Of a DNA stretch of 64,000 nt, positions 5,244-62,963 are shown one piece after another. The position numbers were made by a program, and so were the translations under genes. The DNA comes from Bacilli bacterium (GTDB lineage Bacteria > Bacillota_I > Bacilli_A > RF39 > UBA660): assembly GCA_017409785.1 (NCBI GenBank), contig JAFQSD010000004.1, positions 130,910 to 194,909 of the forward strand, given 5' to 3'. The notes beneath the pieces are model-generated. The model had not been told where the DNA came from. It saw nothing but the letters and a program-made list of their open reading frames with translations, and ran no database searches. Positions within the stretch are counted from its first letter, which is position 1; each line of letters starts with the position of its first letter.

Positions 5244-6113
5244 ATGCAATATTTTCAAATATTAACATGTAATGATGCCCTAGGAACTTGTTGTACTGAT
5301 TTTGCTTTAGCATCAGTATTAGATGTAGTACGCAAATTCTTTAATATATTTCAATTAGTAGTTCCAATTCTTTTAATTGTTGGAGTGACAATTCAATTAA
5401 TAAAATTAATGAGTAATCCAGATGAAAAAGGTGGCGGAAAAAAAGTAATAAATAGAATTATTGCTGCTGTAGTTTGTTTCTTCCTACCAATGATGGTTGA
5501 CGTTGTACTTGGAATGATAAGTCAAACATCAACATTTAAAGTAGCAGATTGCTGGGAATTAGCCAAAATATCAAGTGAAGTTTCTCAAGCAAATAAAGCA
5601 ACGTATATTAATCCATATAAAGATGAAGAAAGAAAATCAATTTTAATTGATCCAAGCCTTTATAAACCAGGAACACCATCTAATCCAACTGGTTCAGATC
5701 CACAACCCGGTAATGGACAAGCTTCATTATTAGGTTCTCAAATAGTAGTATATGCCAAAAAATTCGTAGGACAAAGATATGTATATGGTGGTTCATGGAA
5801 CGGAGAACTACCATACACCCCAACTGACTGTAGTGGATTTGTTCAAGGAGTATTTAAACATTTTGGTATAAGTCTTCCAAGAACCACATCGACTCAATGG
5901 GCTGCTAAGTCAAAATATCAATTAGTAAGTCCAGCAGATATTAGAGCAGGAGACCTAGTAATGTATGACGGTCATGTCGGAATATTAACAGGTATTGGTA
6001 CAGAAGTAGTTCATGCTAAAGGATCAAAATGGGGAGTTGTTCTTGATCCTGACTATAGAACTTGTTCTAGTCATGCAATCCTTGGAATAATGCGAATTAA
6101 TGGTGTAAATTAG
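5244..6113 (+). CDS. Fusion protein: an N-terminal two-helix pilin-like membrane hairpin plus a C-terminal NlpC/P60 (C40) cell-wall peptidase.
   Basis: The N-terminal region ...IQLIKLMSNPDEKGGGKKVINRIIAAVVCFFLPMMVDVVLG is paralogous to ORF 26057 and to the C-terminus of ORF 26470. The C-terminus has the C40 Cys and His motifs DCSGFV...GHVGIL. AGGAGG RBS. Confidence 0.6.
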   Translation: MQYFQILTCNDALGTCCTDFALASVLDVVRKFFNIFQLVVPILLIVGVTIQLIKLMSNPDEKGGGKKVINRIIAAVVCFFLPMMVDVVLGMISQTSTFKVADCWELAKISSEVSQANKATYINPYKDEERKSILIDPSLYKPGTPSNPTGSDPQPGNGQASLLGSQIVVYAKKFVGQRYVYGGSWNGELPYTPTDCSGFVQGVFKHFGISLPRTTSTQWAAKSKYQLVSPADIRAGDLVMYDGHVGILTGIGTEVVHAKGSKWGVVLDPDYRTCSSHAILGIMRINGVN

Positions 6114-12574: not shown

Positions 12575-14128
12575 ATGATTATTAGAAAACCATATGCCTT
12601 TTTAATTAAACATTTCAAAAAAATTCATATTTTATTATTAGTATTAAGTGCTTTTATTTATTATAGAAGTTTACAATTAAGTTCCTTTATCAGTGAATTC
12701 ATGCGTTTAGAAACATATGATTCTTATTATGAACCAATAACAAATCATGTATCATTCCTACCAATCTTGGCAATGATTCTATTGAGTATTGGAAGTATAA
12801 CCTTAATATTTTTACTACGTCATAAGAAAAAACCATGGAAACTATATATATTACCGGCCTTTGAATATATCTTTATGATGATTGTATTCTTTTCAGCAAA
12901 AAGCTTCTTCGACCAATATAATGGTATTGTAGATTCAGCTGGTATAAGAGCAATAAGAGACTTCTTGTTTATTGCTACGGTATTACAATATCCATCTATG
13001 TTTATATTCCTTTTAAGAACAATTGGAGTCGATTTAAAAAAATTTAATTTTCAATCTGATGAAGAATATCTAGAACTAAGCAGTGCGGACCACGAAGAAT
13101 TAGAAATTAATATTGAATTTGATAAAGATAGTTTAAAACGTGGAGCAAAAAAACTCTTCAGAAACATGAGTTATATATATGCAGAACACAAACTGATAAT
13201 AAACATCATAGCATCAGTTTTATTTGTAGTGTTCTCATACGGAATGTATAAGTTTATTTTCATAACAAATAAATCATATGGACAAGGTGAATCCCTAAAT
13301 GCTAATGGTTATGAAATAACCATAAATAAAAGTTATTATACGGATAAAGACTATACGGGAAAAGTAGTAAGTGATAAAAGTGCATTCGTCATTGTAAATA
13401 TGACTGTAAAAAATACACAACAACAAAGAGAAGCTGATTTACAAAAATATCACGTTATGAACGGAATTAAAGACTATGTTACAACAGAAAAAATTTATGA
13501 AACAGAATTCCAAGATTTTGGTAATGCAGTTAAAACGCTAGATCTTAAACGTGATGAAAGTCAGACATTCATTATGATTTTTAAAGTAGATAAAGAACTA
13601 AGAAGAAATAGATTTGTACTATATTATCAAGAATTTAACGGAGATACTCCACATTTAAGAAAAATTAAATTAAAACTAAATGATGTTTCAGAAATAAAAG
13701 AACATAAAGCAATCACAATCGGAGATGAATTAAAGTTTACTCTAGAAGAAAAAACAGAAAAGATAACATTTGATGATTTTGAGTTCCTTGATTCAGTCGA
13801 ATATTCATATAGAATTTGTTATAGTTCTAACTGTTCCACAAAACAAGGAATTTACACTGCAAAAGAAGGGTACAAAATCCTTAAAATGCCGTTCTCTTCC
13901 AACAATTTTGAGGGCAAAGATATGATTGACTTTTCAACTAAATATGGTACAATAAATTATATAGATAATAAGGGTAAGAAGAGTAGCATATCAATCAAAA
14001 ATCCATTCAATAAAACATACTACGGAAAGTACTTATATGCTCAAGTCCCTATAGCAGTATCAAATTCAACAAATATTGAATTAGAATATACAATTAGAAA
14101 CAATAGATATATATATAAGATTAGATAA
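12575..14128 (+). CDS. Polytopic membrane protein (about 4 N-terminal TM helices) with a large extracytoplasmic beta-rich domain (DUF4352-like). First gene of the accessory block.
   Basis: Hydrophobic segments in residues 15-150. The C-terminal region ITINKSYYTDKDYTGKVVSDKSAFVIVNMTVKNT...SQTFIMIFKVDKE resembles a DUF4352-type beta-sandwich. Confidence 0.45.
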   Translation: MIIRKPYAFLIKHFKKIHILLLVLSAFIYYRSLQLSSFISEFMRLETYDSYYEPITNHVSFLPILAMILLSIGSITLIFLLRHKKKPWKLYILPAFEYIFMMIVFFSAKSFFDQYNGIVDSAGIRAIRDFLFIATVLQYPSMFIFLLRTIGVDLKKFNFQSDEEYLELSSADHEELEINIEFDKDSLKRGAKKLFRNMSYIYAEHKLIINIIASVLFVVFSYGMYKFIFITNKSYGQGESLNANGYEITINKSYYTDKDYTGKVVSDKSAFVIVNMTVKNTQQQREADLQKYHVMNGIKDYVTTEKIYETEFQDFGNAVKTLDLKRDESQTFIMIFKVDKELRRNRFVLYYQEFNGDTPHLRKIKLKLNDVSEIKEHKAITIGDELKFTLEEKTEKITFDDFEFLDSVEYSYRICYSSNCSTKQGIYTAKEGYKILKMPFSSNNFEGKDMIDFSTKYGTINYIDNKGKKSSISIKNPFNKTYYGKYLYAQVPIAVSNSTNIELEYTIRNNRYIYKIR

Positions 14129-14137: not shown

Positions 14138-15940
14138 ATGAATAAAAAAACTATAAATTTTTTAAAACTTTTGGTAGTAGTAGTAATCGCAGCCTTATTT
14201 GTATGGTTTGTATTTATATATCCATCATACAACTTTAGTAAATATGAAAAAAGTTTAGAGGAAGCAGCAAAAAGATATTTCGATTTAAATCAAACAGAAT
14301 TACCTACTGGAAATAGAATTGCAACAGTCTCAATGCAAACTCTATATCACAAATCATATTTAAAAGAAGATTTTTATATTCCATATACTGATGAACCATG
14401 TAACTTAAAAGATTCATGGGTAAAAGTTAGAAAAGTAGATGGAGAATATAAGTATTATACATATCTACAATGCGGAGCTATTAGATCAACAGTAGATAGT
14501 AAAGGACCAACAATAAATTTAAATGGTTCTGAAAAAATAACAGTTGATTTAGGCGAAGAATATAAAGACCCAGGAATTAAAAGTGTAGTAGATAACAGTG
14601 ACGGAAAAATGGATGTTAAAGAAGTAACTGTTAATGCTAGTAAAGTTGATACAAATAAAATTGGAACATACGAAGTAACATATACAGCACAAGATGCATT
14701 AAAGAATAAAACAGTAGTTACAAGAGAAGTTGAAGTTGTATCTAAAATAAAAAATGCTGTAAAAGTTGCCACTGATAAAAAAGGTTATTATACAGGTAAA
14801 GAACCAAATAACTACTTAAGATTATCAGGAATGTTATTTAGAATCATTGGTGTAGATGGAGATAATGTTAAAATAGTTGCCTCAGAAGATATTGCCAATG
14901 TTAACTATAGTGGTATCTCATCATGGCTAGAAGATTACTATATGAGTCATATTAATGACGAAGCTAAAAAGCTTTTAGTAAAAAACAAATATTGTAATAT
15001 GTCAGCAACTACAGAAAACTTATCAACGACAGAATGTACATCATATACGAAGAAAAGATATGCGTATGTAACTTCAATAACAGATGTAAATAAATCATTA
15101 GTAAATAATGAATCATTCTTAAGACCAGGAACAATGACTTGGTTAGCAAATGAGAGTGATAAAGATAAAGCCTATGCAACAAGAAATATTTTCTTTGGAG
15201 AATATTCTTACAATTATGTATTTATTCCAGAAAACAAATCTGAAAACTATGGAGTTCGCCCGGTACTAACTGTAAAAGGAAATACATTAGTAAAAAAAGG
15301 AGACGGAACATATGAAAATCCATATTCATTTGGTGAAACCAAATCTGGAAAGATTGATGAAAAGATAAATACAAGATATTCTGGTGAATATTTAGAATAT
15401 GCAGGAAACCTATGGAGAATCATTGAAGTAAATAGCGATGGAACAACAAAAATTATTTCTGTAGAAAATATTAAAAAAAATGGTGTCCCTGTTGAAATAA
15501 AATATGACACAAAATCAGACAAAAAGATTTATAATCCAAAAGAAAAAGGAAACATAGGATATCAAATTAACAATAGAATGAGTGAATATATTGATACATC
15601 ATATTTCGTTAATAAAAATATAAGTGTGCCAATTTATAAAAAAGAATTCCAATATGGCAAAGAATTAGAAACTAAGAAGTACAAAGTTAAATTGTCCGCA
15701 CCAAATATGTATGAAATGTTCTCAACTATTGAAAATCAAAAAAATTCATCATATTGGTTAATTAATTCATCTGAAGCAAAATATTACAAAGCAGTAACAT
15801 CAGATGTAGGAGTAGTGGTTAGTGGAGAAATAGGAGATTTCACAAAATTTGGAGTAAGAGTAGTTGGAAATCTATCTAAATCGGTAATCATTACAAAAGG
15901 AAATGGAACACTTGAAAAACCATATGGTATTACGAAGTAA
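14138..15940 (+). CDS. Membrane-anchored surface protein with an Ig-like (DUF5011-type) domain and C-terminal repeats shared with ORF 37871.
   Basis: N-terminal TM segment. GPTINLNGSEKITVDLGEEYKDPGIKSVVDNSDGK...IGTYEVTYTAQDALKNKTVVTREVEVV is a classic DUF5011 Ig-like pattern. Repeated NY.RL...(F/W)RII...K(I/V)(I/V) and RPV..L.....K.G.GT...PY motifs. Confidence 0.55.
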   Translation: MNKKTINFLKLLVVVVIAALFVWFVFIYPSYNFSKYEKSLEEAAKRYFDLNQTELPTGNRIATVSMQTLYHKSYLKEDFYIPYTDEPCNLKDSWVKVRKVDGEYKYYTYLQCGAIRSTVDSKGPTINLNGSEKITVDLGEEYKDPGIKSVVDNSDGKMDVKEVTVNASKVDTNKIGTYEVTYTAQDALKNKTVVTREVEVVSKIKNAVKVATDKKGYYTGKEPNNYLRLSGMLFRIIGVDGDNVKIVASEDIANVNYSGISSWLEDYYMSHINDEAKKLLVKNKYCNMSATTENLSTTECTSYTKKRYAYVTSITDVNKSLVNNESFLRPGTMTWLANESDKDKAYATRNIFFGEYSYNYVFIPENKSENYGVRPVLTVKGNTLVKKGDGTYENPYSFGETKSGKIDEKINTRYSGEYLEYAGNLWRIIEVNSDGTTKIISVENIKKNGVPVEIKYDTKSDKKIYNPKEKGNIGYQINNRMSEYIDTSYFVNKNISVPIYKKEFQYGKELETKKYKVKLSAPNMYEMFSTIENQKNSSYWLINSSEAKYYKAVTSDVGVVVSGEIGDFTKFGVRVVGNLSKSVIITKGNGTLEKPYGITK

Positions 15941-15951: not shown

Positions 15952-16782
15952 ATGCACAAGAAAAATAAAAGAAAATTAAAACTGAATCAGAGGACCAAGA
16001 CATTAGCTCTTGTAACAGGTCTTCTGATTTGTTGCTGTATTGTACTAGTTACATTAACTGCGATGTGGATAGTACCAAAAAATATCTATAAAGTAGAAGA
16101 CAGACAAAAAGAAATTAAGAAAGAACAAAAGAAAGATGAAGAAGGAATCGAAACAGTAGCTTGGCTAAGAGTTCAAGGAACAATGATTGATACTCCAATC
16201 GTTGCCTATGAAGAAGGAAAAGATCTAAGTTACCTAGATAAAGAAGATTTCTTGTGGACAGAAGCAAAAACAGCAGAATATAAAAACCAAATCAAAATAA
16301 TGGGCCATAACATTTTAAATCTATCTGCCACACCAGAAATAGGAGTAAACTACTTTACAAAATTTGAAGATTTAATGGCATTTACTTATGAAGATTTTGT
16401 TAAAGAAAACAAATATATTCAATATTCAATCGGTGATAAAGAATATGTATATAAAGTATTCGCTGTGCTATATGACAAAAGTTATAATTTAGATTTATAT
16501 AATACAGATAATTATTCAACTGAAGAAATGGCAGATTATATTGAATTAGTGGAATCAAAGAGTTTATACGACTTTGATATAGATGTTGATGCAAGTGATG
16601 ACATCATTTCATTAGTAACATGTTCTAGACTATACGGAGTAGATCAAAAAAGACAATTCGTTGTTGTAGGAAGATTACTAAGAGATAATGAAAAGATGAC
16701 AAACTATTCATTTGAAACAACAGAAAAATATGAAGAAATTCAAAAACTAATGAAAGGAGAAATTAACTATGAAGCAGTATAG
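15952..16782 (+). CDS. srtB: Class B sortase-family transpeptidase.
   Basis: N-terminal TM segment. AWLRVQGTMIDTPIV matches the SrtB GWL.I.GT.IDYPV motif. Catalytic His (IMGHN), the TLxTC-type Cys motif ISLVTCS, and a downstream Arg (VVVGRLL) are present. Confidence 0.65.
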   Translation: MHKKNKRKLKLNQRTKTLALVTGLLICCCIVLVTLTAMWIVPKNIYKVEDRQKEIKKEQKKDEEGIETVAWLRVQGTMIDTPIVAYEEGKDLSYLDKEDFLWTEAKTAEYKNQIKIMGHNILNLSATPEIGVNYFTKFEDLMAFTYEDFVKENKYIQYSIGDKEYVYKVFAVLYDKSYNLDLYNTDNYSTEEMADYIELVESKSLYDFDIDVDASDDIISLVTCSRLYGVDQKRQFVVVGRLLRDNEKMTNYSFETTEKYEEIQKLMKGEINYEAV

Positions 16783-19726
16783 AAAAAGATTAATAGGGGT
16801 TATTCTTCTTGGTTTATTCACCTTAGTTTTAAGTTATAATGCTATAGCTGAAGAAACAACAACAACACCTCCAGCTGAAGAACCTGCAGTAAAAGAGTGT
16901 AAAAACGGTGAAGTTCAAGACATTGAATCTCGTTATAACTTAAAACTAGAAAAAGTTGGTGCTGGTCAATATAAAGTAACAATGGCTGGAGATGCAGCTG
17001 ATATTGATACAGGTGCATTCAAAATCATCGGTACTGAAGTAGGTATTGGTGATGACGAATATGAAGGAATTACTGGACCAGTTGGTACAATCAATGCCAT
17101 AGAAACAATTGCAGAAATTAAAAAAGGTCAAGATGCATACTTCAATGCAACACCAGCCACAGCAGCAGATGGTGCTAAGATATTAGCAGTAAAAGTTCAA
17201 ATGGTTGCAGGATCATCACTATTAAATGACTGTGACTATACAGGTAGACTTGTAATTAAAGATTACGGAGATTCAGCAATAAGCAATATCTTCAGTGGTG
17301 GTAACACACAAGAAAATTCAAAGTCTATTTATAAAACAGGAAGTATTTGTTATAACTTCTACAATGGAATTTGGAATAGTGAACAATTTATAGGTATAAG
17401 AGAATCAGATTTTAATGCTTACAATTACCAAGCGGCAGCAGGATTAATGGTTGGTGGTAAATCAGCTCAAGCAATTTATCAAACAACATTATCATATTGT
17501 TTCCAACAACATGTAACAATTGGAGCAGAATATTCTGATACAGACTTAGCTAATATGATTGGAAATGCAATCACATATACAAAGTCAAGAACACAAACAA
17601 TCGGTGGTTCAAATAAAACGTTTGCACAATTATTTGAAGAAATAAAAACTCACGCAAAAGTTCAAAATAAATCTGGTAAAACAGCTGAAGATAAAGGAAT
17701 CACTTGTGATTGGCAAAAAACAGAAACAACAGGAGATCCAAACGATTATTATAAAAATAAAAACTATTATTACAAAGAAGAACAAGTAGAATCAATTTCA
17801 GTTCAATATACATATAACTATGCTCCTGGTGATGTAGTAACAACACCAGCACAAGAAGTATGTACAAGAACATGTGCAGAAGCAGTAAAAGTGGAATATG
17901 GTCCACCAGTTGCTTCAAAAGCTGGATTATGCTTTGAATATAACGTAAAAGTAACAAGTTATGTAGAATGTACATCTGATATAAAACTTGATCCTCCAGT
18001 AGCACAAACAAACTATTGTAGTCCAGTTGCATTCTGTCACGAAAAGAACTGGAGATGGAGTGGTCACCAAGCAGGACCAACAGAAGAATTCGACGCATGT
18101 ATTCAAGAATGCGACGGAGGAAAATATACAAGTAAATGTAGTAAAAAATGTTACAAGAAAGTATATAAAAATTCAAAACTAAAATTATCATATGAAAATG
18201 ATATAGTAGCTAGTAGATTAAGCAATACATATACAGTAGATTCATGTATCGCAACAAGTCCAGATGGTGGATGTTATTACTGGAGTGGTAACGACATCAT
18301 GTGGAAGAGTACATACCAAGGCGGTCTAGACTTTACTAATGATGTAAGAGCTCTAGGAAGATGGTATAGAGAAGTACAATGGTACGTTGGAGACTTAGGA
18401 GAAGGAAGATCATACGACGTTTCTTCAAATGGTATCAAGACTAAGAAGAAAGCAAGTTCTTCAACAGGACACTGTCAAGATATTTGTTATTGGAAAACAG
18501 ACGTTTGTACAAAAGGTCAATATTTAAATCCAAACTCAGCATTAGAAGACTACCAAGCTAACTTAAAATTATATCAATCAAAAGTTGCTCAATGTGAAGC
18601 TGCAACAACATGTAGTTCATCAACTGCAACATTTACAATTTCAATTAACTATGATTCATATGTACAAGAAACAGGGGCAAGTGCTAAAACTAAAAAGAAA
18701 ACAACAATTAATTTCCCTCGTTCACCATTGAATCAAGATAAATTACCATCACATGGTAAAGATGTAGTAGATACAAGCAACACATTCAATGCCGATGGTT
18801 CAACATTATTGTCATACAATGGATGTTATACAGCAGCAACAGAAAAGAACTGGTATCAAGCTGAATGGGGATTCCCAGGAACATACATCCATAACAAAAC
18901 TGGAGAAATTTCTTATTCAAAAGATAAGATTCAAAGTGATACAGGTACAATCGAAGGATGGTACTATGATGATAATAAATTCTGTATGCCACTTGAAGCA
19001 GAAAGTGTTAATACAAAATGGTGGGAATGGTACAAGATAAACAACATGCAATTTAGCTGTTACACAAGCGACCAAATCAAAAATGAATTAGCAACAAACG
19101 ACGGAACATCAAATGGATACAACATCCATGCATCAACAACAGATTTTGGATACTTCGGTTGGGACTTCGATATAAGTTGTTTCTATGCACTTAGAAATGA
19201 ACTATGTGACGAAGATACATTAACACATTGTTGTAAAAAAGATACTTGTGTTGGAGATTCTTGTGAAACAGAAATAAACGGAGTTAAAAATTATATGTTC
19301 AGAGCAATCGATACAAATAACGTATTCCCAAATGCGATTGTAGAAGGTGTTACTGATGAAACAAAACGACCAATTGGATTCAACTGGACAAATAAAGCAG
19401 CAAACTCTAAAAACCCAGATTATCTTGTTAATCCAGCAAAATTAATTGAACAAATTGAAAATAGAAGTGAAAGTCTTTATACAGATGATAACTTAGATTA
19501 TCAATTCCATTTAACACCAGAAGTATTATGGAAAATTAAAGAGTACAATAAAGAAACACCATATGGTACATGGAATGGTAGAGTAGATATCAAAAACGGA
19601 ATCTACGTATATTTCAGTAACCTATGGGGAGAAATAGATAGTGGTGTAACAAAAACAGTAGACTTAAGAAACTACAGTTCAGTACTTAAAACTGGTACAC
19701 CAGGTGTAAATAATGAGGAGGATTGA
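16769..19726 (+). CDS. Large (985 aa) secreted cysteine-rich protein of unknown function.
   Basis: Signal peptide MKQYRKRLIGVILLGLFTLVLSYNAIA. About 40 Cys in clustered C-x-x-C, C-x3-C and CC patterns. No LPXTG or NPQTN sorting signal and no C-terminal anchor. Start overlaps the sortase stop. Confidence 0.6.
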   Translation: MKQYRKRLIGVILLGLFTLVLSYNAIAEETTTTPPAEEPAVKECKNGEVQDIESRYNLKLEKVGAGQYKVTMAGDAADIDTGAFKIIGTEVGIGDDEYEGITGPVGTINAIETIAEIKKGQDAYFNATPATAADGAKILAVKVQMVAGSSLLNDCDYTGRLVIKDYGDSAISNIFSGGNTQENSKSIYKTGSICYNFYNGIWNSEQFIGIRESDFNAYNYQAAAGLMVGGKSAQAIYQTTLSYCFQQHVTIGAEYSDTDLANMIGNAITYTKSRTQTIGGSNKTFAQLFEEIKTHAKVQNKSGKTAEDKGITCDWQKTETTGDPNDYYKNKNYYYKEEQVESISVQYTYNYAPGDVVTTPAQEVCTRTCAEAVKVEYGPPVASKAGLCFEYNVKVTSYVECTSDIKLDPPVAQTNYCSPVAFCHEKNWRWSGHQAGPTEEFDACIQECDGGKYTSKCSKKCYKKVYKNSKLKLSYENDIVASRLSNTYTVDSCIATSPDGGCYYWSGNDIMWKSTYQGGLDFTNDVRALGRWYREVQWYVGDLGEGRSYDVSSNGIKTKKKASSSTGHCQDICYWKTDVCTKGQYLNPNSALEDYQANLKLYQSKVAQCEAATTCSSSTATFTISINYDSYVQETGASAKTKKKTTINFPRSPLNQDKLPSHGKDVVDTSNTFNADGSTLLSYNGCYTAATEKNWYQAEWGFPGTYIHNKTGEISYSKDKIQSDTGTIEGWYYDDNKFCMPLEAESVNTKWWEWYKINNMQFSCYTSDQIKNELATNDGTSNGYNIHASTTDFGYFGWDFDISCFYALRNELCDEDTLTHCCKKDTCVGDSCETEINGVKNYMFRAIDTNNVFPNAIVEGVTDETKRPIGFNWTNKAANSKNPDYLVNPAKLIEQIENRSESLYTDDNLDYQFHLTPEVLWKIKEYNKETPYGTWNGRVDIKNGIYVYFSNLWGEIDSGVTKTVDLRNYSSVLKTGTPGVNNEED

Positions 19727-19732: not shown

Positions 19733-20224
19733 ATGAACAAAGGAATGTTAACAGTAGGAATTATCATGTTAAGTCTAATGGCACTATTATTAATCAATGT
19801 CATTAGTAACTACTCAACTGGTGGAGAATTAGACTACTACCTAGTAAAAGAAACAACAGAGGCTGCAATGGAAGATGCCATTGACCTTGAATATTACAGA
19901 ATGAATTCATTATTAAGAATCGACAAAGAGAAGTTCGTAGAGAGCTTCCTTCGTCGATTTGCCGATAATGTCGATAATACACGTTCATACACAGTGAGCT
20001 TCTATGATATTAATGAAGTTCCACCAAAAGTAAGTGTAAAAGTTGATTCTCATACAGTATTAAGTTTCTCAGGTTCAGCAGCAAATATTTCAACAAATAT
20101 TGATGCAATTCTAGAAACAGATTACGAAGAAGATAAATACACTGAAAAAGTATTATCAGATCCAGATAACGATGCTGGATATGGAATCGGTGATAGAAGT
20201 AATAGTGCGAAAGGAGCAGAATAA
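19733..20224 (+). CDS. Bitopic membrane protein with a pseudopilin-like (TadE/TadF-like?) N-terminus.
   Basis: N-terminal hydrophobic segment MNKGMLTVGIIMLSLMALLLINVISNY. First gene of the Tad-like module. Confidence 0.3.
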   Translation: MNKGMLTVGIIMLSLMALLLINVISNYSTGGELDYYLVKETTEAAMEDAIDLEYYRMNSLLRIDKEKFVESFLRRFADNVDNTRSYTVSFYDINEVPPKVSVKVDSHTVLSFSGSAANISTNIDAILETDYEEDKYTEKVLSDPDNDAGYGIGDRSNSAKGAE

Positions 20225-20226: not shown

Positions 20227-21033
20227 ATGGGGAATCTTAGTACAGGAATAAAAAAGTTCTTACAAAACAAGAATACCGTAACAGTACTTGGAGTTGTTGT
20301 TGCAATCATCATATTATATGTTGCATACAATATGCGTGTTCAATCAGCAATTAATCCAATTAATGTTCCATATGCTAAAGAACAAATTTCACCTGGTACA
20401 CAAATTACAGCAAACATGGTTGGAACAAGAGCTGTACCACCATCAATGCTTGAAGGAGATGTAATCACATCTCAAAGTGCTGTAATTGATAAGTATTCTA
20501 GTGCTGATACAGTAATACCTGCAGGAAGTCTATTCTATGCAAGAACTGTAGTAGAAAAAGAACAATTACCTGCAAATATTATTCTTACTTATCCAAAAGG
20601 ATATGTATTATATAATATGTCAGTTACAACATCAACAACATATGGAAACTCAGTTTATCCAGGAAACTATATTGATATTTACTTAAAAGCAGTAAATAAA
20701 ATTGGTGAAGACGAAGAAATGACTGCTGATGCTGATAAAATCATGTTAGGAAAACTAATGTCTAACGTTAAAGTTTTAGCAGTAAAAGATTCTTCTGGAC
20801 AAGCAGTTTTCTCAAATCTAGATGAAAAAAGAACACCTGCAATGATCGTATTTGCAGTACCAGAAGAATATTATATTTTACTTAAAAAAGCAGAATATTT
20901 AAGAACATATGATTCAACACTAATCCCAGTTCCAACAAACGAAAGTTTAAAAGACGAACCAGGAGAATTAGAAATCAGTAGTGAATCATTAAAAGACTGG
21001 ATTAACAAAGTTACAGTTTGGACAGAATCATAA
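20227..21033 (+). CDS. cpaB: CpaB/RcpC-like SAF-domain Flp pilus assembly protein.
   Basis: N-terminal TM segment followed by a SAF-like segment VPYAKEQISPGTQITANMVGTRAVPPSMLEGDVI. Confidence 0.55.
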   Translation: MGNLSTGIKKFLQNKNTVTVLGVVVAIIILYVAYNMRVQSAINPINVPYAKEQISPGTQITANMVGTRAVPPSMLEGDVITSQSAVIDKYSSADTVIPAGSLFYARTVVEKEQLPANIILTYPKGYVLYNMSVTTSTTYGNSVYPGNYIDIYLKAVNKIGEDEEMTADADKIMLGKLMSNVKVLAVKDSSGQAVFSNLDEKRTPAMIVFAVPEEYYILLKKAEYLRTYDSTLIPVPTNESLKDEPGELEISSESLKDWINKVTVWTES

Positions 21034-21078
21034 AAAAGAAAAAAAGAATTACAAAAGAATTAAAGGGATGTGAGTTAG

Positions 21079-22470
21079 ATGAATGAAAATATATTTGATA
21101 AGTTAGACTTTGGTGCATTTCGTCCGTTACTAGACAACGATGATATTACCGATATTTCATATAGTAATGGGGGACAAATATGGATACGTTCTCTAACTCA
21201 AGGATCCCTAAGAGTAGAAATCGATGGTGCAACTCCAGAATTCGTTGAAAAACTAGCATTTCAATGTTCCAACGTTATGGGAACAACCTTCAATAATGCT
21301 AAGCCATTCTTAGATGCTGAATCTGCTGAGTTACGTATGAACTTCGTTCACCAATCAATTGCGACAAATGGAATTGCCTTAGTTATTCGTAAAACTCCAG
21401 CAAAAATCCGTTTGGAAAAAGAAAAATTGATTAAAGATGACTACTTCACAAGAGATATACATGACTTACTAATTAAATGTGTTCAAGGACACTGTAATGT
21501 CATGGTAGCAGGAGAAACTGGTTCCGGAAAAACAGAGTTCGTTAAGTACTTAGCCAGTCATACAAAAACAAGTGAAAAAATTATTACAATCGAAGATACA
21601 TTGGAACTTCACTTAGACAGAATCTTCCCACAAAGAGATATTGTTTCAATGAAGACCAACAATGTAGCAAGTTACTCAGATGTATTAGTTACTTGTATGC
21701 GTCAGAATCCAAAATGGATTCTACTTTCCGAAGTACGTAGTGCAGAAGCGGTTTCTGCAGTACGTAACTCAATTTCATCAGGACACAACATTTTATCTAC
21801 AATCCACGCTGACAAAGCATCAGCTATTCCATATCGTCTATATTCATTAATGGAAACTGACTTAGATGTACATCAATTCTTATCAACAATTTATCGTTAT
21901 ATTCAATTAGGTGTACATATTAAAGCTTACTACAGTAAAGAAAGAGGAAAATTCCATCGTGAATTAGATGAAGTGTGTGAATTCTATGTAGATGATGATA
22001 ATGTTCCACAATCTAGAATAATTTATCAAAAAATATTTGGTAAAAATCCAGTAATGAGAAAACCAAGTGATCATTTACTTCAATTCTTAGAAAATCAAAA
22101 TATTGATGTAAGTGCTATTGTTGATAAATTACCTGATGATATGCCATTTAAAGAACAAGAAGAAATTAAGTTAGAAAATGATCAAGACAATCAAACAACT
22201 GCTCAACCAGAAGCAACAAGTGAAACACCAGCAATAGAAAACAAACCAGTAGAAGAGCCAAAATTGGTTGAAGAAAAAAAAGAAGTAGTACAACCAGAAC
22301 AACCAACATTGCAACCACTTAATGAATCACCTCAACCAACACAACCTGCTCCTCAATTAGTTGCACAACCAAGCGAGCCAGTACAACAAGTAACACAACA
22401 ACCTGTACAACAACCAGCTCAACCGCAAGTACAACAACCAGCAGTTACTAAATTAGATAGTCTATCATAA
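21079..22470 (+). CDS. cpaF: CpaF/TadA-type (VirB11 superfamily) secretion ATPase with a Pro/Gln-rich C-terminal extension.
   Basis: Walker A motif VMVAGETGSGKTEF, Walker B/Asp box ITIEDTLEL, His box STIHADKA, and WILLSEVRSAEA. The C-terminal ~100 aa are QP/PQ-rich low complexity. Confidence 0.8.
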   Translation: MNENIFDKLDFGAFRPLLDNDDITDISYSNGGQIWIRSLTQGSLRVEIDGATPEFVEKLAFQCSNVMGTTFNNAKPFLDAESAELRMNFVHQSIATNGIALVIRKTPAKIRLEKEKLIKDDYFTRDIHDLLIKCVQGHCNVMVAGETGSGKTEFVKYLASHTKTSEKIITIEDTLELHLDRIFPQRDIVSMKTNNVASYSDVLVTCMRQNPKWILLSEVRSAEAVSAVRNSISSGHNILSTIHADKASAIPYRLYSLMETDLDVHQFLSTIYRYIQLGVHIKAYYSKERGKFHRELDEVCEFYVDDDNVPQSRIIYQKIFGKNPVMRKPSDHLLQFLENQNIDVSAIVDKLPDDMPFKEQEEIKLENDQDNQTTAQPEATSETPAIENKPVEEPKLVEEKKEVVQPEQPTLQPLNESPQPTQPAPQLVAQPSEPVQQVTQQPVQQPAQPQVQQPAVTKLDSLS

Positions 22471-22485
22471 TAGAAAGGAGTTTGT

Positions 22486-23388
22486 ATGTATTTAGAAGAG
22501 TTATTAATAATTATAGTAATTATAGTTGGTATTTTCTTATACAGAAATTACAAAGGACAAAATGTTGGTAAATTTATTACTGAACAAGTAACAACAATCT
22601 ATGAAAAATACGCACCATTCTCCTTTAAAGTTGTTAGAGAAAAAGCCAAAGAATTAGGACAAGAGTATAGTACAAAACAATATATTATGCAAATATGTTT
22701 ATTTGCAGGAGGAGCTGCAGCCATAAGCTACTTATACTTTTACAACATTGTTATAAGTTTATTCTATGCTGTAATTGCCGTTACTTTTGTTCCTTATCTA
22801 GCATACTTAAGATGTAAAAGAGTATATAGTGAATTTATTTTTGAGCAAATCCAAGTATATACATCAAACGTAATTATGGAATTTGCTACAACTCAATCAT
22901 TTGTTAAGTCATTAGAAGGAGTTAGAAATTCAGGAATCTTAGAAGATCCAGTTCTAAGTGACGTTAATCACATGATTGAATTATCTTATGACAATGGTAC
23001 TATTGATGAAGCCTTAGCATATATGAGTGAATTATATCCATATTATATAGTTAAGAATATGCATCAATTATTCTTACAAATTACAAAAGAAGGTGCTCGT
23101 AACTCAGCAGATTCACTTGATAACATGCAACTTGATATCGACATGTTAATTGAAAGTGTATATCGTGACCGTATTGAAAGAGCATCATTCCACAAAAACT
23201 TCTTAACATTCGGATTTACATTATATTTACTTGTAATGTTAGTTCAACTCCTACTAGGAAATGAAAGTTATATCATTCTACTAGAAAGATGGTATATCCA
23301 AGTATTATTACATGCAGTAATTGTTGTTAATACATATTTCCTTTTAAAAGGAGAAAAATACTATAATGAGAATGTAGGTGCTGAATAA
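22486..23388 (+). CDS. tadB: TadB-like (T2SSF/GspF-domain) pilus assembly inner-membrane protein.
   Basis: About 300 aa with N-terminal and C-terminal TM pairs flanking a cytoplasmic alpha-helical domain. Adjacent to cpaF. Confidence 0.5.
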   Translation: MYLEELLIIIVIIVGIFLYRNYKGQNVGKFITEQVTTIYEKYAPFSFKVVREKAKELGQEYSTKQYIMQICLFAGGAAAISYLYFYNIVISLFYAVIAVTFVPYLAYLRCKRVYSEFIFEQIQVYTSNVIMEFATTQSFVKSLEGVRNSGILEDPVLSDVNHMIELSYDNGTIDEALAYMSELYPYYIVKNMHQLFLQITKEGARNSADSLDNMQLDIDMLIESVYRDRIERASFHKNFLTFGFTLYLLVMLVQLLLGNESYIILLERWYIQVLLHAVIVVNTYFLLKGEKYYNENVGAE

Positions 23389-24194
23389 TGGAAGTATTAA
23401 TTATTGGAGCAATCATATTATTTGTATTAGTATATAACAATACCATTGATAAGAATAAGTTCTTCGCAGATAATGAAAAATATCTAGAATCATTAAAAGA
23501 AAAAGATTATGAGTTCCTAGTATATGCAAGATATGGAGATCAAGTTGATGTTAAACAACTATATATGCAAAGAGTTACATATGCACTTATAACATTCTTC
23601 ATTGTATTAGGATTTGCAGTTAGTGGAGGAAATCAAGATAAACTTGGTTCAGAGTTCTTCCTATATTTAGCAATAGCTGCAGTAGTAGCCTTTATAGTTT
23701 TTAAATCATCATATACCCAATTAAAAGGTTATTATAAAAAACACTTACATGAAATTGACGTTATGTTACCATACTATTTAAAGAGTTTGGAAATCTTAAT
23801 CCAACACTATACAGTTCCAGTAGCATTAGGTAAGTCAATAGACGATGCTCCTGAAATATTTAAACCAGGATTAAGAAAATTAATTGATCGTATCAATGCC
23901 GGAGATTCAACAATTGATCCTTACATGGAATTTGCAAATACATATCCTGTAAGAGATTCAATGCGTATGATGCGTCTATTATATCGTCTTGGATTAGGTT
24001 CACAAGAAAAGAAACAAGAACGTTTAATGATGTTTTCAAGAACTGTTTCAACACTACAAAACAAAGCTCGTGAAACAAAATATAAAGAACGTTTAGGATT
24101 CATGGAATCTCAAACTATGGTAATGTTAGTTGTTACCGGAGTTGGTGTAATGTTAATTATTTTAATCTCAATGATGATGATGTTCAGTATGTAA
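23388..24194 (+). CDS. tadC: TadC-like (T2SSF/GspF-domain) pilus assembly inner-membrane protein.
   Basis: Same architecture as ORF 22486. ATGA start/stop overlap with tadB. Confidence 0.5.
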   Translation: MEVLIIGAIILFVLVYNNTIDKNKFFADNEKYLESLKEKDYEFLVYARYGDQVDVKQLYMQRVTYALITFFIVLGFAVSGGNQDKLGSEFFLYLAIAAVVAFIVFKSSYTQLKGYYKKHLHEIDVMLPYYLKSLEILIQHYTVPVALGKSIDDAPEIFKPGLRKLIDRINAGDSTIDPYMEFANTYPVRDSMRMMRLLYRLGLGSQEKKQERLMMFSRTVSTLQNKARETKYKERLGFMESQTMVMLVVTGVGVMLIILISMMMMFSM

Positions 24195-24210
24195 ACAATA
24201 CAAAAAAAAG

Positions 24211-24239
24211 TTGTTTAGTAGATTTTAATTTGCTATAAT
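24211..24239 (+). promoter_or_regulatory. Candidate sigma-A promoter (TTGTTT-17-TATAAT) dedicated to the small pilin-like gene.
   Basis: TTGTTT at 24211-24216 and TATAAT at 24234-24239, 32 nt upstream of the ATG at 24272. Confidence 0.4.
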
Positions 24240-24271
24240 TAAATTATGATAACGAAAGGATGGGATAATAA

Positions 24272-24439
24272 ATGAAAGATGCGACAGGTGAATTAAACTT
24301 AACAGTAATCACATTAGTAGCTATCGCTGCAGTTATTGGATTCTTCTGGGTAATGTGGCCAAATATTCAAAATGCCTTAAATACTCAATGGTCTAATATC
24401 AGTAGTGGAGGACCTGCTACAATCATAGTAGAAAGATAA
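24272..24439 (+). CDS. flp: 55-aa Flp/pilin-like small hydrophobic protein, absent from the ORF track.
   Basis: MKDATGELNLTVITLVAIAAVIGFFWVMWPNIQNALNTQWSNISSGGPATIIVER: a short polar leader ending in Gly, then a hydrophobic helix. AAGGATGGG RBS and its own promoter. It has no E at +5, so it is not a canonical G/XXXXEY Flp. Confidence 0.4.
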   Translation: MKDATGELNLTVITLVAIAAVIGFFWVMWPNIQNALNTQWSNISSGGPATIIVER

Positions 24440-24458
24440 CAAAAAGAGGGTGTTTTAA

Positions 24459-24914
24459 ATGCGTGATGCTTTTGGAGGAGTTGCCAACTTAGTTATTATA
24501 GTTGTATTCCTTACTTTAGTTTCTGGATATTTAGCGTTTAACGTTAACTATACCAAAGCATTCAGAGTTAAGAATAAAATAATTTCTTTATATGAACAAT
24601 ATGAAGGAGAACAATGTTACCACAACGATACAAGTGAATGTAATATTAAAATTCGTGACTATATGAATGCACTTGGATACGATGCTCCATATCTAAATCT
24701 AGAAGGATACAATTGTTATTATGGATATTGTGCAAAAAAATTTGAAACTGAAAAAGTAGATGACAGCGTAACGGGTGACACTAAGAAAAAAGCGTATTAC
24801 AACATTGTAACGCAAATAAATATTGATATTCCTATTATTAATAAGATACTACCGGGATTGAAAATATTTCAAATAGCCGGTGATACAAAACCAATCGTAA
24901 TTGGAATTGGCTAA
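24459..24914 (+). CDS. TadE-like pseudopilin (putative minor pilin).
   Basis: N-terminus MRDAFGGVANLVIIVVFLTLVSGYLAF: a short leader with GG then a hydrophobic helix. Cys-containing extracellular part. AGAGGGTG RBS. Confidence 0.35.
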   Translation: MRDAFGGVANLVIIVVFLTLVSGYLAFNVNYTKAFRVKNKIISLYEQYEGEQCYHNDTSECNIKIRDYMNALGYDAPYLNLEGYNCYYGYCAKKFETEKVDDSVTGDTKKKAYYNIVTQINIDIPIINKILPGLKIFQIAGDTKPIVIGIG

Positions 24915-24931
24915 AAAGAGGGTGATACTGA

Positions 24932-26002
24932 GTGAACGTAATAGTTTCAAATGAACAACAAAGTCAAACAGCTAATTTAGATGTCGATATAATTAAAAGT
25001 ATTACTGGAGCATATAGTTCAATTGAACTAGTAGAAATGTTTAAGAATTTCTTCTACAGTAAAATGGTTTTAGATGTAACATCTATTAAAAATTATCAAA
25101 ATATCTTAGAATATAAAACATTAGCTGATGGATTAGATCCAGATAAAATTATTTTCTTTATTCCAGAAGGAAGTAGTTTATGTACACCTAACTTTCTAGC
25201 TAAACTAGTAACGTTGGGAATATATAATTTCACAACTAATATAGATGGAGTAAAATATTTATTAAAAAAATCAAACACATTTAATGATGTAGCTCACATT
25301 CAACAAATGGGCGGTGGTGTTATTGAAGAACTTCAACAACCACCACAACCAGACCCTGCGGAACAAGGGGCTCAAACTCAACAAGGAACTTTTGTAGCTC
25401 CGGCACATCATGTTCAAGTTCAGCAAGGAAGTATGGCTAGAACAATAAAAATTGGTGTACGTAATGTTACAGACCATGCAGGAGCAACAAGTTTGATATA
25501 TATGTTCAAAAAAGAACTTACATCAGTATTTGGTGAAAGTAACGTTGTTGCAATAGAAATTAATAAAAATGATTTTCAATTCTATAATGATAAGAATATG
25601 ATATCAACAACAACTAATGACATAAAGACAGTTATTGAAAGATATAATGGAGTATCTGTACTGTTAATAGATTTAAATGATTTTGAAGATAACACAATTT
25701 GTGATGATGTTCTATATTTATTAGAGCCAAGTACTTTAAAATTAAATAAGTTAATTAGAAAGAATAAACATATTTTTGGTAAAATAAAAGATAAAAAAAT
25801 TGTATTCAATCAAAGTTTATTAACTAGTAAAGATATAAGTGAGTTAGAATACGAAGCGGGAATCAAATCCTTCTTTAATCTACCTCCAGTTAATGATAGA
25901 AAGAAAAACGAAATAGTAACAGAATTACTTGCAAAACTTGGATTATTACAAATTACAGGTGGCAATAATTCTGGTAAAATATTTGGTCTATTTAGACGTT
26001 AA
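24932..26002 (+). CDS. TadZ/CpaE-like protein: a pseudo-receiver N-domain plus a ParA/MinD-like domain with a degenerate P-loop.
   Basis: GTG start with AAGAGGGTGA RBS. The second half has IKIGVRNVTDHAGATSLIYMF where ParA has KGGVGKTT, and VLLIDLND is a Walker-B-like box. Confidence 0.35.
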   Translation: MNVIVSNEQQSQTANLDVDIIKSITGAYSSIELVEMFKNFFYSKMVLDVTSIKNYQNILEYKTLADGLDPDKIIFFIPEGSSLCTPNFLAKLVTLGIYNFTTNIDGVKYLLKKSNTFNDVAHIQQMGGGVIEELQQPPQPDPAEQGAQTQQGTFVAPAHHVQVQQGSMARTIKIGVRNVTDHAGATSLIYMFKKELTSVFGESNVVAIEINKNDFQFYNDKNMISTTTNDIKTVIERYNGVSVLLIDLNDFEDNTICDDVLYLLEPSTLKLNKLIRKNKHIFGKIKDKKIVFNQSLLTSKDISELEYEAGIKSFFNLPPVNDRKKNEIVTELLAKLGLLQITGGNNSGKIFGLFRR

Positions 26003-26056: not shown

Positions 26057-26377
26057 ATGTTAGAATTAGTTCAATTAGCTTCAGCATGTGGAGGATTAGA
26101 CCCACTAGTAAGTTTAGTTAAAAACGGGTTGTTCCCAATCGTATATATTATTATTCCAATTGCATTACTTATTTATGCAGTTATCGATTTTGGTAAGGCA
26201 GTAATTGCAAGTGATGAAAAAGAAGTTAAAGCAGCACAAAGTAGATTAATCAAACGTGCAATTTATGCAGCACTAATTTTCTTCGTAGTATTCCTAGTTA
26301 AAGCAATTATGGATGTAGTTGCTAAAGGTGGAACTGGAAATACTGGAGATTGGTGGTCTTGCTGGGAATCAGTATAA
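26057..26377 (+). CDS. Two-helix hairpin membrane protein, a VirB2/TrbC-like T4SS pilin candidate.
   Basis: The 106-aa sequence ...PIVYIIIPIALLIYAVIDFGKAVIASDEKEVKAAQSRLIKRAIYAALIFFVVFLVKAIMDVV... is paralogous to the N-domain of ORF 5244 and to the C-domain of ORF 26470. Confidence 0.45.
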   Translation: MLELVQLASACGGLDPLVSLVKNGLFPIVYIIIPIALLIYAVIDFGKAVIASDEKEVKAAQSRLIKRAIYAALIFFVVFLVKAIMDVVAKGGTGNTGDWWSCWESV

Positions 26378-26469
26378 TATAGACAGTAAAATAAAAAATA
26401 GTAAATAAATTGCTATTTTTTTTTTCTTCTGATATACTTAATATGTTATAATGTATTTGGAGTGATCTT

Positions 26470-27552
26470 ATGAAAAAAAAGCAACTATTTGGTTTGATTT
26501 TATTAATGTTAATAACATTATTTATACCAAATAACATCAATGCAAAAGAGAAAAAAGTAATTTGTGAATATCAATATAAAAACCAAGAATTAATTTATAC
26601 AATTGATAATAAAGTAATTCTTCCATTTGAGGATGGAAAAGACAATTGGTATCATGGACAAGATTTTAAAAATAACTATTTGAAAAATTCAAAAATAAAT
26701 AGCAATACTTATGTATGTCCAACAATAACAATTGAAGAATCTGATAGTTTTATAACAATATTTAATAATCCAAGAAGTGAAGATGAGTGTAGTGGAGTAT
26801 GTACAACTCTATCAGCAATAAACTATCAGTCAAGTAAAAATATAAATGTTAAAAAAGCAGTAGATACTACTGCTATTAGTAGTGTAGGAATTTATAATCA
26901 AGATAATTACTTTATTCCATATTTTAGATTATTAGAAGACGGTACAAAAGAATGGTCAGTTGATGGAATTAATTACAAGCCAGTAACTGAAAAAGTAGAA
27001 AATGACAAACTAGAAATAAGTTTAGATAAGTCATTAATTGAAGAAATTTATCAAGATAAAAACTTAAATAAAAATGTCACAATATATAGAAATGTAAAAA
27101 ATGATAATAACAAATATATCTATTTATTAGCAACACATAAAGTATCTGGTTACAATTTAAATGACGGACAAGAAACTAGTGCTAGAGCATATCATGCTGC
27201 ATATGGTGACCCAGACATAGATGAGTGGTTAGAAGATTATAATCAAAACCAAGATTGTTCTGGAGATAATAGTATTCTAGGAAGTTATAACGACCCTAAC
27301 TCAGTAGCATACTTCCTACAAATAATATTTAATTGGTTAAAACTTATTGGTCCATTTATAGTTATAGTTATGAGTGGTATAGATTTTGCTAAAGTAATCG
27401 TAATGGGTGATGATGATGGAATGAAGAAAGCTCAAACAAAATTAATCATCAGATTAATTCTTGCAGCATGTTTATTCTTCTTACCAGATTTAATCAAAGC
27501 ATTCTTAGACTTATTCAATATTACATCAAGTGGAATCTGTGGATTACAATAG
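26470..27552 (+). CDS. Secreted protein with a ~270-aa ectodomain fused to a C-terminal pilin-like two-helix domain.
   Basis: Signal peptide MKKKQLFGLILLMLITLFIPNNINA. The C-terminus GIDFAKVIVMGDDDGMKKAQTKLIIRLILAACLFFLPDLIKAFLDLF matches the ORF 26057 family. Confidence 0.45.
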   Translation: MKKKQLFGLILLMLITLFIPNNINAKEKKVICEYQYKNQELIYTIDNKVILPFEDGKDNWYHGQDFKNNYLKNSKINSNTYVCPTITIEESDSFITIFNNPRSEDECSGVCTTLSAINYQSSKNINVKKAVDTTAISSVGIYNQDNYFIPYFRLLEDGTKEWSVDGINYKPVTEKVENDKLEISLDKSLIEEIYQDKNLNKNVTIYRNVKNDNNKYIYLLATHKVSGYNLNDGQETSARAYHAAYGDPDIDEWLEDYNQNQDCSGDNSILGSYNDPNSVAYFLQIIFNWLKLIGPFIVIVMSGIDFAKVIVMGDDDGMKKAQTKLIIRLILAACLFFLPDLIKAFLDLFNITSSGICGLQ

Positions 27553-27580
27553 TTTAAAGCAAAAAAGAGGTGATTAGTAA

Positions 27581-29653: not shown

Positions 29654-29676
29654 TATAAAGAGGAGTGTGATACATA

Positions 29677-30003
29677 GTGCGTAACTATTTAATTCCTGCA
29701 AACACAAAAAGAGGGAAATTAATACTAGGAATGTTTAAACCGTTTGATTTAGTGTTATTTGGAACAGGAATTCTTATTACATTTATATTTCTAGCATTCA
29801 TGCCGCTAAGCTCAACACTTGTAACAATACTTGTGTTGAGCCCAGCGCTTGTTACTGGATTCTTAGTTTTACCTGTACCTTATTATCACAACATACTAAA
29901 TATCCTAATTGAAATGTATGAATTTATAACAACAAATCAAACATATAGATGGAAAGGTTGGTGTTTTAGAAGTGGCGAAAAAGTCATCAAAAAACGTAAG
30001 TAG
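29677..30003 (+). CDS. Small 2-TM membrane protein (VirB3-like candidate).
   Basis: GTG start with AAGAGGAG RBS. 108 aa with two hydrophobic helices, immediately upstream of the VirB4 ORFs. Its 3' end overlaps ORF 29972 by 32 nt. Confidence 0.35.
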   Translation: MRNYLIPANTKRGKLILGMFKPFDLVLFGTGILITFIFLAFMPLSSTLVTILVLSPALVTGFLVLPVPYYHNILNILIEMYEFITTNQTYRWKGWCFRSGEKVIKKRK

Positions 30004-32319: not shown

Positions 32320-32346
32320 AATATAAAGTAGTAAGGTGGTGGAAGC

Positions 32347-34668: not shown

Positions 34669-34672
34669 TTAA

Positions 34673-35452: not shown

Positions 35453-35513
35453 ATAATGACAGTTATAAAAAGTTAAGTTATAATAAAAAAGAAAAAAGAA
35501 AGGAAGTAGTAAT

Positions 35514-37853: not shown

Positions 37854-37870
37854 TAGAAGGAGATTTGCTT

Positions 37871-56994: not shown

Positions 56995-57035
56995 TAACAT
57001 ATTAAATATATATTTAGTAATAAGCAGGTGACAAA

Positions 57036-61930: not shown

Positions 61931-61934
61931 TAAT

Positions 61935-62010: not shown

Positions 62011-62017
62011 TTTTTTT

Positions 62018-62957: not shown

Positions 62958-62963
62958 TATTAT

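Follow-up and report, generated by a model that had tools for sequence, protein, structure and literature searches.

Uncultured gut Bacilli of the Genome Taxonomy Database (GTDB) order RF39 carry a chromosomal locus in which a Tad-like pilus module is joined to a type IV secretion system (T4SS), and the most divergent gene of this locus encodes a large, cysteine-rich protein that matches no known family. This protein, here called X, is encoded at 16769–19726 on the forward strand of a 64000-nucleotide stretch of DNA, referred to throughout as the window (assembly GCA_017409785.1, contig JAFQSD010000004.1, positions 130910 to 194909; RF39, UBA660). The leading explanation, to which we give an even chance, is that X is the surface-exposed specificity subunit (an adhesin or receptor-binding protein) of an apparatus, a Tad-like pilus plus T4SS, that is fixed in the chromosome of RF39-type gut Bacilli. 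X is the fastest-evolving part of the pilus and transfer cluster, which suggests that it is the part that recognises the target. An adhesin role is further suggested because X appears to be exported and locked by disulfides, with a conserved body and a variable N-terminal end, and because it outpaces the machine in divergence and has been duplicated as part of a cassette beside a pilin-like gene.

Sequence features and family of X

The gene for X starts with an ATG codon, preceded at about 10 nt by AGGAG, and encodes 985 amino acids (aa). A preliminary description, made from the sequence alone, had proposed a secreted 985-aa protein with a signal peptide, no wall-sorting motif and no recognisable enzymatic motif, and each of these points is upheld by the open reading frame (ORF), its translation and the domain searches. 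The signal peptide (aa 1–27, 16769–16849, forward strand) is of the Sec type as read from the sequence: the N-terminus is MKQYRKRLIGVILLGLFTLVLSYNAIA/EE, with the n-h-c layout MKQYRKR-LIGVILLGLFTLVLS-YNAIA/EE and predicted cleavage at AIA/EE. By eye, the same layout recurs in 49 homologues with AxA-type sites (e.g. AIA/EE, TFA/EA and VFA/ET), and it differs from the class III signal of type IV pilins. The signal peptide is also the sole hydrophobic segment of X (the only one above 1.6 on the Kyte–Doolittle scale), and the C-terminus (...GTPGVNNEED) has neither a membrane anchor nor a sorting signal.

Three regions follow the signal peptide, all on the forward strand. The variable N-terminal region (aa 28–320, 16850–17728) is modelled by AlphaFold2 (AF2) as a beta-sandwich and then a helical domain. 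The conserved cysteine-rich core (aa 321–840, 17729–19288) holds 26 of the 31 cysteines and about 78 invariant residues. The C-terminal domain (aa 841–985, 19289–19723) is free of cysteine and ends in a G-[VC]-N-N motif (aa 979–982, 19703–19714) near the extreme C-terminus. The AF2 model as a whole has a pLDDT of 74.7 and a pTM of 0.57. The core is predicted to consist of long beta strands, with most 10-residue blocks at pLDDT 70–95 and weak spots at aa 421–490 and 821–840 (pLDDT 31–68), while the blocks of the C-terminal domain lie at pLDDT 43–69.

X belongs to a sizeable family. A word-indexed search found 272 homologues, and a hidden Markov model (HMM) run against 1.84 billion cluster representatives yielded 702 representative clusters, 478 of them at E up to 1e-30. 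The best 150 of the 702 are mostly full-length (850–1265 aa), with three shorter members (461–704 aa), and in many distant members the alignment does not start before about profile position 250. None of the relatives found has a Pfam domain or a name beyond 'hypothetical protein'. Likewise, X itself, 48 homologues and eight unusually long members have no Pfam or NCBIfam match; one sub-threshold SGL match in a single N-terminal extension was disregarded. X has no match in PHROGs, its profile has none at E up to 1 among all PDB sequences, and a Foldseek search with its AF2 model returned nothing below 1e-3 in PDB and no match in BFVD. A clear hit to a known family with another role, which by the preliminary description would have refuted its proposal, was thus not found in Pfam, NCBIfam, PHROGs, PDB or Foldseek. 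Searches of the literature on RF39 with pili, Tad systems or T4SSs found no description of the X family or of the combined locus, and both are absent from the literature searched. By function, X can for now be classed among the surface proteins that accompany pili or T4SSs, and its fold is of no recognised type.

Divergence and duplication of X

Related loci were collected by scanning one genome per species, which gave 228 stretches with relatives, of which 78 loci were kept. Nearly all are from uncultured gut metagenome-assembled genomes (MAGs) labelled Bacilli, Tenericutes, Mollicutes, Mycoplasma sp. CAG:877, Erysipelotrichaceae or Ca. Faecimonas; three of the 78 are labelled Muribaculaceae. 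The X hits that can be placed taxonomically belong to GTDB order RF39.

In the window, the operon runs from a membrane protein (A517) and an Ig-like protein (B600) through a sortase, X, a DUF5411 protein, CpaB, an ATPase and two membrane proteins to a Flp-like pilin, a TadE-like protein, a 356-aa protein, two VirB2-like proteins and a VirB6-like protein, followed by VirB4-like and VirD4-like genes. This arrangement is well preserved. Among the 78 loci, the sortase and DUF5411 are each present in 76, CpaB in 71 and the ATPase in 70, which confirms the co-occurrence with the sortase gene that the preliminary description had suggested as a check. A517 and B600 are found in 73 of the 78 genomes with their order unchanged, and gene order from A517 through the VirB6-like gene is identical in 51, most of the others being cut by contig ends. 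The start of X overlaps the stop of the sortase gene, as described earlier, by 14 nt in the window, and 73 of 76 related genomes preserve an overlap. Downstream, the stop of X lies 0–26 nt from the start of DUF5411 in nearly all genomes.

Rates of change differ strongly along this conserved arrangement. Median identity to the window is 34% for X, 40% for the sortase, 47% for A517 and 50% for B600, against 68% for DUF5411, 73% for CpaB, 77% for the ATPase, 74–76% for the TadB/C-like proteins, 74.5% for Flp and 88% for the neighbouring GreA. The mean pairwise p-distance across 56 genomes is 0.65 for X and 0.20–0.35 for the machinery, making X the most divergent gene of the locus. Variation is also uneven within the protein: in 50-aa blocks compared across 48 homologues, identity is 18–26% over aa 1–300 and 34–68% over aa 301–400, reaching 68% at aa 351–400. 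On a shorter timescale, 10 of the 21 differences between X and its 98%-identical cluster representative P0001, whose cluster counts 27 members, fall in aa 489–581. This segment may be a variable patch within the species that is distinct from the N-terminal variation between species.

X is present in two copies in seven loci (L041, L042, L043, L052, L061, L068 and L077). In six of them the tandemly repeated unit is (A517)-B600-sortase-X-DUF5411, with the machinery remaining single-copy; the extra genes of L041 are instead copies of CpaB and a 1268-aa paralogue of X. Paralogues within duplicated loci are 37–63% identical for X, 40–60% for the sortase and 65–100% for DUF5411. In addition, a mirror-tree comparison found that the cassette genes co-vary after control for machinery distance, with partial r of 0.45–0.67 from data points that are not independent.

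Conserved cysteines

The translation of X contains 31 cysteines, fewer than the 'about 40' of the preliminary description. At 3.15%, its cysteine content is still the highest in the window, whose remaining 56 genes have 0.85% (binomial P about 1e-9), and the two cysteine-rich peptides quoted in that description are present at aa 444–464 and 812–835. Conservation was assessed in 49 sequences that are 31–78% identical to X. Sixteen cysteines are invariant (365, 369, 388, 401, 423, 444, 448, 457, 461, 569, 573, 609, 615, 686, 739 and 804) and two more are at least 90% conserved, which answers the earlier concern that these residues might not be conserved among homologues. Variable cysteines tend to come and go in pairs. 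For example, C417 and C580 are both present in 41 sequences, both missing in six and single in two (r 0.85), and co-occurrence also links C764 with C822 (r 0.76), C493 with C502 (r 0.72) and C827 with C832 (r 0.66).

The spacings include four CX3C motifs as well as CX4C and CX5C, and X has no CxxC, CxC or HxxH; its single His-Cys adjacency is HCC. Particularly well conserved is a twin CX3C motif (18098–18151, forward strand), in which C444, C448, C457 and C461 are all invariant. In the AF2 model these residues lie on two short predicted helices (aa 440–449 and 455–465, local pLDDT 47–60), an arrangement in which the four cysteines would be paired. Because the cysteines are coupled pairwise, metal-type motifs are lacking and the protein carries a Sec leader, the sequence argues for structural disulfides and against metal sites. 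Conserved cysteines also occur in the TadE-like protein encoded nearby.

The preliminary description had offered metal binding as an alternative, and dense cysteines at invariant positions would suit an extracellular metal-binding or redox protein with cysteine ligands. This is now hardly probable at all. X has only 10 histidines and, apart from the HCC, none of the CxxC, CxC, HxxH or mixed C/H motifs; its cysteines are spaced as CX3C and CX5C, and the variable ones are gained and lost in twos rather than fours. They are moreover spread over about 500 residues in predicted strands and helix pairs, not gathered in compact knuckles, and the operon has no metal-transport genes.

Organisation of the locus

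The conserved block covers 26.5 kb (12575–39088), and all of its genes described here lie on the forward strand. It opens with A517, a polytopic membrane protein of 517 aa and the first gene of the cassette (12575–14128), and B600, a 600-aa, membrane-anchored Ig-like surface protein (14138–15940; Bact_surface_Ig-like, E 3e-17). The sortase gene (15952–16782) and X follow, and then the DUF5411 gene (19733–20224; PF17424, E 7e-49). A short positive leader, a Gly and a hydrophobic helix give the DUF5411 protein a pilin-like N-terminus, in which MNKGMLTVG is nearly invariant. Its AF2 model is poor (pLDDT 51.7), which makes the Foldseek matches of the model meaningless; the remaining hints of a pilin are the N-terminal pattern and the order of a long helix followed by a three-stranded sheet. 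In Clostridia, DUF5411 has been reported from predicted pilus-like operons, beside genes for CpaF and PilC/GspF (PMC9523054).

The Tad-like pilus module (20227–26002) encodes a CpaB/RcpC-like protein, an ATPase, proteins in the TadB and TadC positions, a Flp-like pilin, a TadE-like protein (151 aa) and a 356-aa protein. The CpaB/RcpC-like protein matches TIGR03177 (cpaB, 3e-10) and RcpC (28.1 bits), each under its cutoff. The CpaF/FlaI-like ATPase (21079–22470; T2SSE, 1.5e-27) is closest in PDB to FlaI (1e-18) and CpaF (6e-18), with VirB11 further away (3e-13); its tail (aa ~375–463) is a Q/P/E-rich low-complexity segment of ~90 residues. The TadB/TadC-like proteins match no model and were assigned from position and topology alone, and the pilins, also without a model match, were assigned by size and N-terminal pattern. 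By eye, pilin-type leaders are visible in DUF5411 (MNKG/MLTVG...), the 55-aa protein (MKDATG/ELNL...) and the 151-aa protein (MRDAFG/GVANL...). The 55-aa Flp-like pilin (24272–24439) has no Pfam match, and its first 30 residues (MKxATGELNLTVITLVAIAAVIGFFW) hardly vary across 60 genomes; its Glu directly follows the Gly instead of standing at +5. The scan of window ORFs detected no prepilin peptidase.

The Gram-positive-type T4SS module (26057–39088) starts with two VirB2-like proteins, whose T4SS_pilin matches are weak and below the cutoff. It continues with a TrbL/VirB6-like protein (27581–29653; TrbL_4 weak, below cutoff), a VirB4-like ATPase (30529–32319; AAA_10 1e-15, TraG P-loop 1e-12), a SpoIID-domain wall hydrolase (32347–34668; SpoIID 3e-12), a VirD4 coupling protein (35514–37853; T4SS-DNA_transf 1e-58) and a 407-aa surface protein that matches DUF6273 (37865–39088). 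Long low-complexity or acidic tails are present in the TrbL/VirB6-like and VirD4 proteins. A G-x-G-T-x-x-x-P-Y motif closes both B600 and the DUF6273 protein, which bracket the locus, and suggests that the two carry related surface domains. Outside the block, 6.5 kb 5' of the main locus and among housekeeping genes, a 289-aa protein (5244–6113, forward strand) fuses an N-terminal VirB2-like T4SS_pilin domain (28.1 bits, cutoff 26.6) to an NlpC/P60 hydrolase. In a promoter and terminator scan of 11.5–27 kb, counts did not exceed those of shuffled controls, and no convincing terminator was found within the operon.

No clear sign of mobility was found for the locus. Its flanks are housekeeping genes, and neither a relaxase nor an integrase domain was detected in any window ORF scanned. 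Megablast of 12–27 kb and tblastn of X and DUF5411 against plasmids gave no match; the same megablast and tblastn of X against phages also gave none, a scan of IMG/VR found no relative, and PHROGs gave no hit. The block is flanked by no tRNA gene and no GC jump. On these searches and the unremarkable flanks, an origin as a plasmid, phage or recent island was rejected. GreA adjoins the locus in 63 of the 78 related genomes and an HD protein in 58. Since gene order and chromosomal site are kept among the 78 related loci, the whole block is inherited vertically at one chromosomal site. Elsewhere in the window, an array of 12 tRNA genes occupies 1.2 kb (61854–63040, forward strand).

Organism

The window has a GC content of 29.5%, and proteins identical to its sortase and DUF5411 protein come from NCBI 'Bacilli bacterium' MAGs. 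Ca. Faecimonas corresponds to GTDB genus CAG-877 of order RF39, with 28% GC and a 1.4-Mb genome (PMC8035907), so that the relatives suggest an RF39-type lineage for the window. Predictions for RF39 include peptidoglycan, sortases and a modified sporulation capacity (PMC10868615). The window also encodes MltG/YceG and rubrerythrin. A sigma-70-family factor and the sporulation protein YunB (56215–57978, forward strand) are consistent with sporulation genes having been kept in the lineage. The preliminary description had called the organism a sporeformer; YunB, the sigma factor and the prediction for RF39 (PMC10868615) make this plausible, but do not show it. An anaerobic, Gram-positive and possibly spore-forming bacterium that is not a Clostridium is a reasonable description.

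The sortase and its possible substrates

The sortase matches the Pfam Sortase family (32.5 bits, cutoff 26.6), and its score against TIGR03064 (srtB) is 61 bits, below the cutoff of 153.75. It aligns with PDB SrtB chains across the whole catalytic domain (E 6e-12 to 1e-8), with LVTCS opposite LATCT and GR opposite GR, such that the catalytic His, Cys and Arg positions are kept. The GHN and TC motifs are retained in at least 95% of the 76 orthologues, and the identical protein in NCBI is named 'class B sortase'. By these alignments the enzyme is a divergent relative of SrtB and appears intact.

What it might act on is less clear. A pattern scan for cell-wall sorting signals found none in X or in any other window ORF of at least 50 aa, and matched only one spurious antisense ORF. 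The lack of a canonical substrate in the window points to a sortase reaction that has not been described. Two conserved motifs of X are candidate recognition sites, and both may simply be structural. The internal [NH]-N-K-T-G motif (aa 708–712, 18890–18904, forward strand) lies in the context W-S-F-P-G-T-W-I-[NH]-N-K-T-G-E-I-S and resembles class B sortase motifs such as NPKTG; K710 and G712 are invariant, N709 is kept in 48 of 49 sequences and T711 in 42. In the C-terminal G-[VC]-N-N motif, N981 is kept in 48 of 49, N982 in 44 and G979 in 43, with only 1–15 residues following.

These motifs bear on whether X is a conventional sortase substrate, either anchored to peptidoglycan or built into a sortase-polymerised pilus as a subunit or tip. 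In favour of such a substrate, the sortase retains its catalytic residues, its gene shows translational coupling to that of X (73 of 76 genomes), it both duplicates and diverges with X, and either motif could serve as the recognition site. We nevertheless regard this as unlikely. An LPXTG-type motif with a hydrophobic segment and a positive tail behind it is absent from X and from all other ORFs of the 64 kb. As for the candidate sites, NKTG lies inside the protein, with 273 more residues and no membrane anchor after it, and the C-terminal motif lacks a Thr or Ser at position 4 and is bracketed in distant members by a pair of cysteines, which suggests a structural loop. Furthermore, sortase distances fit those of B600 (partial r 0.67) at least as well as those of X (0.59), and the sortase–X pair is not singled out.

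Possible roles of X

If X is the specificity subunit of the apparatus, it would be exported by Sec and lose its signal peptide. The core (aa about 320–840) would fold into an elongated, beta-rich body locked by about 13–15 disulfides, a lock that would keep X stable in the gut lumen. Core and C-terminal domain would then dock on the machine; the likeliest partner is the DUF5411 pilin-like protein, which would place the docking site at or near the pilus. The N-terminal 300 residues would contact the target surface, whether another bacterium, mucus or a host cell, and the class-B-like sortase would act in a non-canonical manner on X or on the adjacent Ig-like protein. In Gram-positive T4SSs, surface adhesins serve mating-pair formation (PMC12857230). 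The idea of a fibre tip or adhesin in the preliminary description fits the evidence, but the fibre in question would be a Tad-like (type IVc) pilus with its T4SS, and not a sortase-built one.

Several observations weigh against a specificity subunit. In the PDB profile and Foldseek searches, neither sequence nor fold linked X to a known adhesin such as PilY1/PilC, PrgB or fimbrial tip proteins, and no binding domain can be recognised in it. Its rapid divergence could equally reflect pressure from immunity or phages, to which any exposed protein may be subject. What suggests a pilin in DUF5411 is an N-terminal sequence and a low-confidence model, and the part played by the sortase is not accounted for.

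A serious but clearly less probable alternative is that X is a structural or assembly part of an envelope-spanning machine rather than an adhesin, for instance a wall-spanning stalk or collar that would replace the secretin/RcpA layer missing in monoderms. The presence of X in every locus, beside CpaB and usually once per machine, is what would be expected of such a part, as is a large conserved core with many invariant residues, long beta strands and numerous disulfides. However, X evolves about twice as fast as each recognised machine component, its duplication as a separate cassette leaves the machine in single copy, and a variable N-terminal region of 300 aa has no obvious role in a fixed scaffold. 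Fast evolution and duplication in some genomes, together with secretion and the lack of a known fold, could also be read as signs of a protein that is secreted to act on other cells, as an effector, toxin or enzyme, and that has no tie to the apparatus beyond the position of its gene. Here the doubts are greater still, and we consider an effector quite improbable: the Sec leader makes X no obvious T4SS substrate, no catalytic motif or toxin/immunity pair is seen, and X is variable N-terminally and conserved C-terminally where polymorphic toxins are the reverse. Its fixed place between the sortase and DUF5411 instead argues for a role associated with the machine.

The specificity reading can also be extended to the locus as a whole. 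In this tentative and rather unlikely form, the 26.5-kb block would be a vertically inherited, relaxase-less Tad-pilus/T4SS machine on which RF39 bacteria depend for a life in contact with other cells, with X as the partner-recognition determinant, attached or processed by the sortase at a non-canonical site. This site would be the internal [NH]NKTG or the C-terminal G[VC]NN motif. The machine could serve DNA or nutrient uptake or exchange, or an epibiont-like attachment such as has been proposed for Patescibacteria.

Comparison with known systems

Certain traits of X recall PilY1 of Pseudomonas and PilC1/2 of Neisseria. These are non-pilin adhesins of type IV pili, Sec-exported and about 1000 aa long, whose genes adjoin minor-pilin genes; their C-terminal part is conserved and their N-terminal part variable, and they are thought to be displayed by a minor-pilin complex. 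X is similarly a non-pilin of 985 aa with a Sec leader and a variable N-terminus, encoded beside a pilin-like gene. However, it has no sequence or fold similarity to PilY1/PilC, whose beta-propeller domain was not found in X by Pfam, PDB profile search or Foldseek, and it differs in being disulfide-rich, in its Tad-like rather than type IVa setting and in its dedicated sortase.

The thin pilus of R64 (IncI1) offers another parallel. It is a type IVb pilus encoded beside a T4SS, and its variable tip adhesin PilV sets partner specificity. The variable part of X and its duplicated, diverged cassettes may play a comparable role. PilV, however, is a minor pilin varied by a shufflon, whereas X is a non-pilin with a Sec leader that varies by divergence and cassette duplication.

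Among monoderms, PrgB-type adhesins are large surface proteins that accompany T4SSs of the VirB4/VirD4/VirB6 type, act in cell-cell contact and involve a sortase (PMC12857230). X resembles PrgB (aggregation substance, pCF10) as a large surface protein of a monoderm T4SS locus with a sortase alongside. A polymer adhesin domain, shared by PrgB and antigen I/II adhesins, and a C-terminal LPXTG signal characterise PrgB, whereas neither this domain nor an LPXTG anchor was detected in X by Pfam, PDB profile, Foldseek or motif scans; Cna, Gram_pos_anchor and pilin Pfam domains are likewise lacking in X and its 48 homologues. X also lies in the pilus half of a chromosomal locus in which no relaxase was found. 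Patescibacteria (Saccharibacteria), which are uncultured and host-associated, with small genomes, have type IV pili and a chromosomal, monoderm-type T4SS with VirB2-like pilin genes that is not obviously mobile (PMC12102498; PMC12857230). The RF39-type locus shares these features: it is chromosomal, with VirB2-like genes, in small-genome, uncultured bacteria of the gut. It belongs to a different phylum, and its pilus and T4SS genes form one operon-like block. No homologue of X has been reported for Patescibacteria, and the best 150 of the 702 clusters are all X-type proteins.

Implications

RF39 is an uncultured order with reduced genomes that is discussed in gut-metagenome surveys, and a single locus joins its Tad-like pilus and T4SS. 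Within this locus, X is the fastest-evolving component, in all probability surface-exposed, and has no annotation anywhere. As an extracellular protein of an anaerobic Firmicute that appears to be heavily disulfide-bonded, it raises the question of which oxidoreductase makes the bonds. If the sortase attaches or processes X at a non-canonical site, this would represent a new mode of sortase use.

Should X set the target of attachment, recombinant X might serve as bait or label for partners and thereby help cultivation, and X sequence types could mark specificity at the strain level. As a partner-recognition determinant, X would offer a way to identify the partners of a major gut lineage that is still uncultured.

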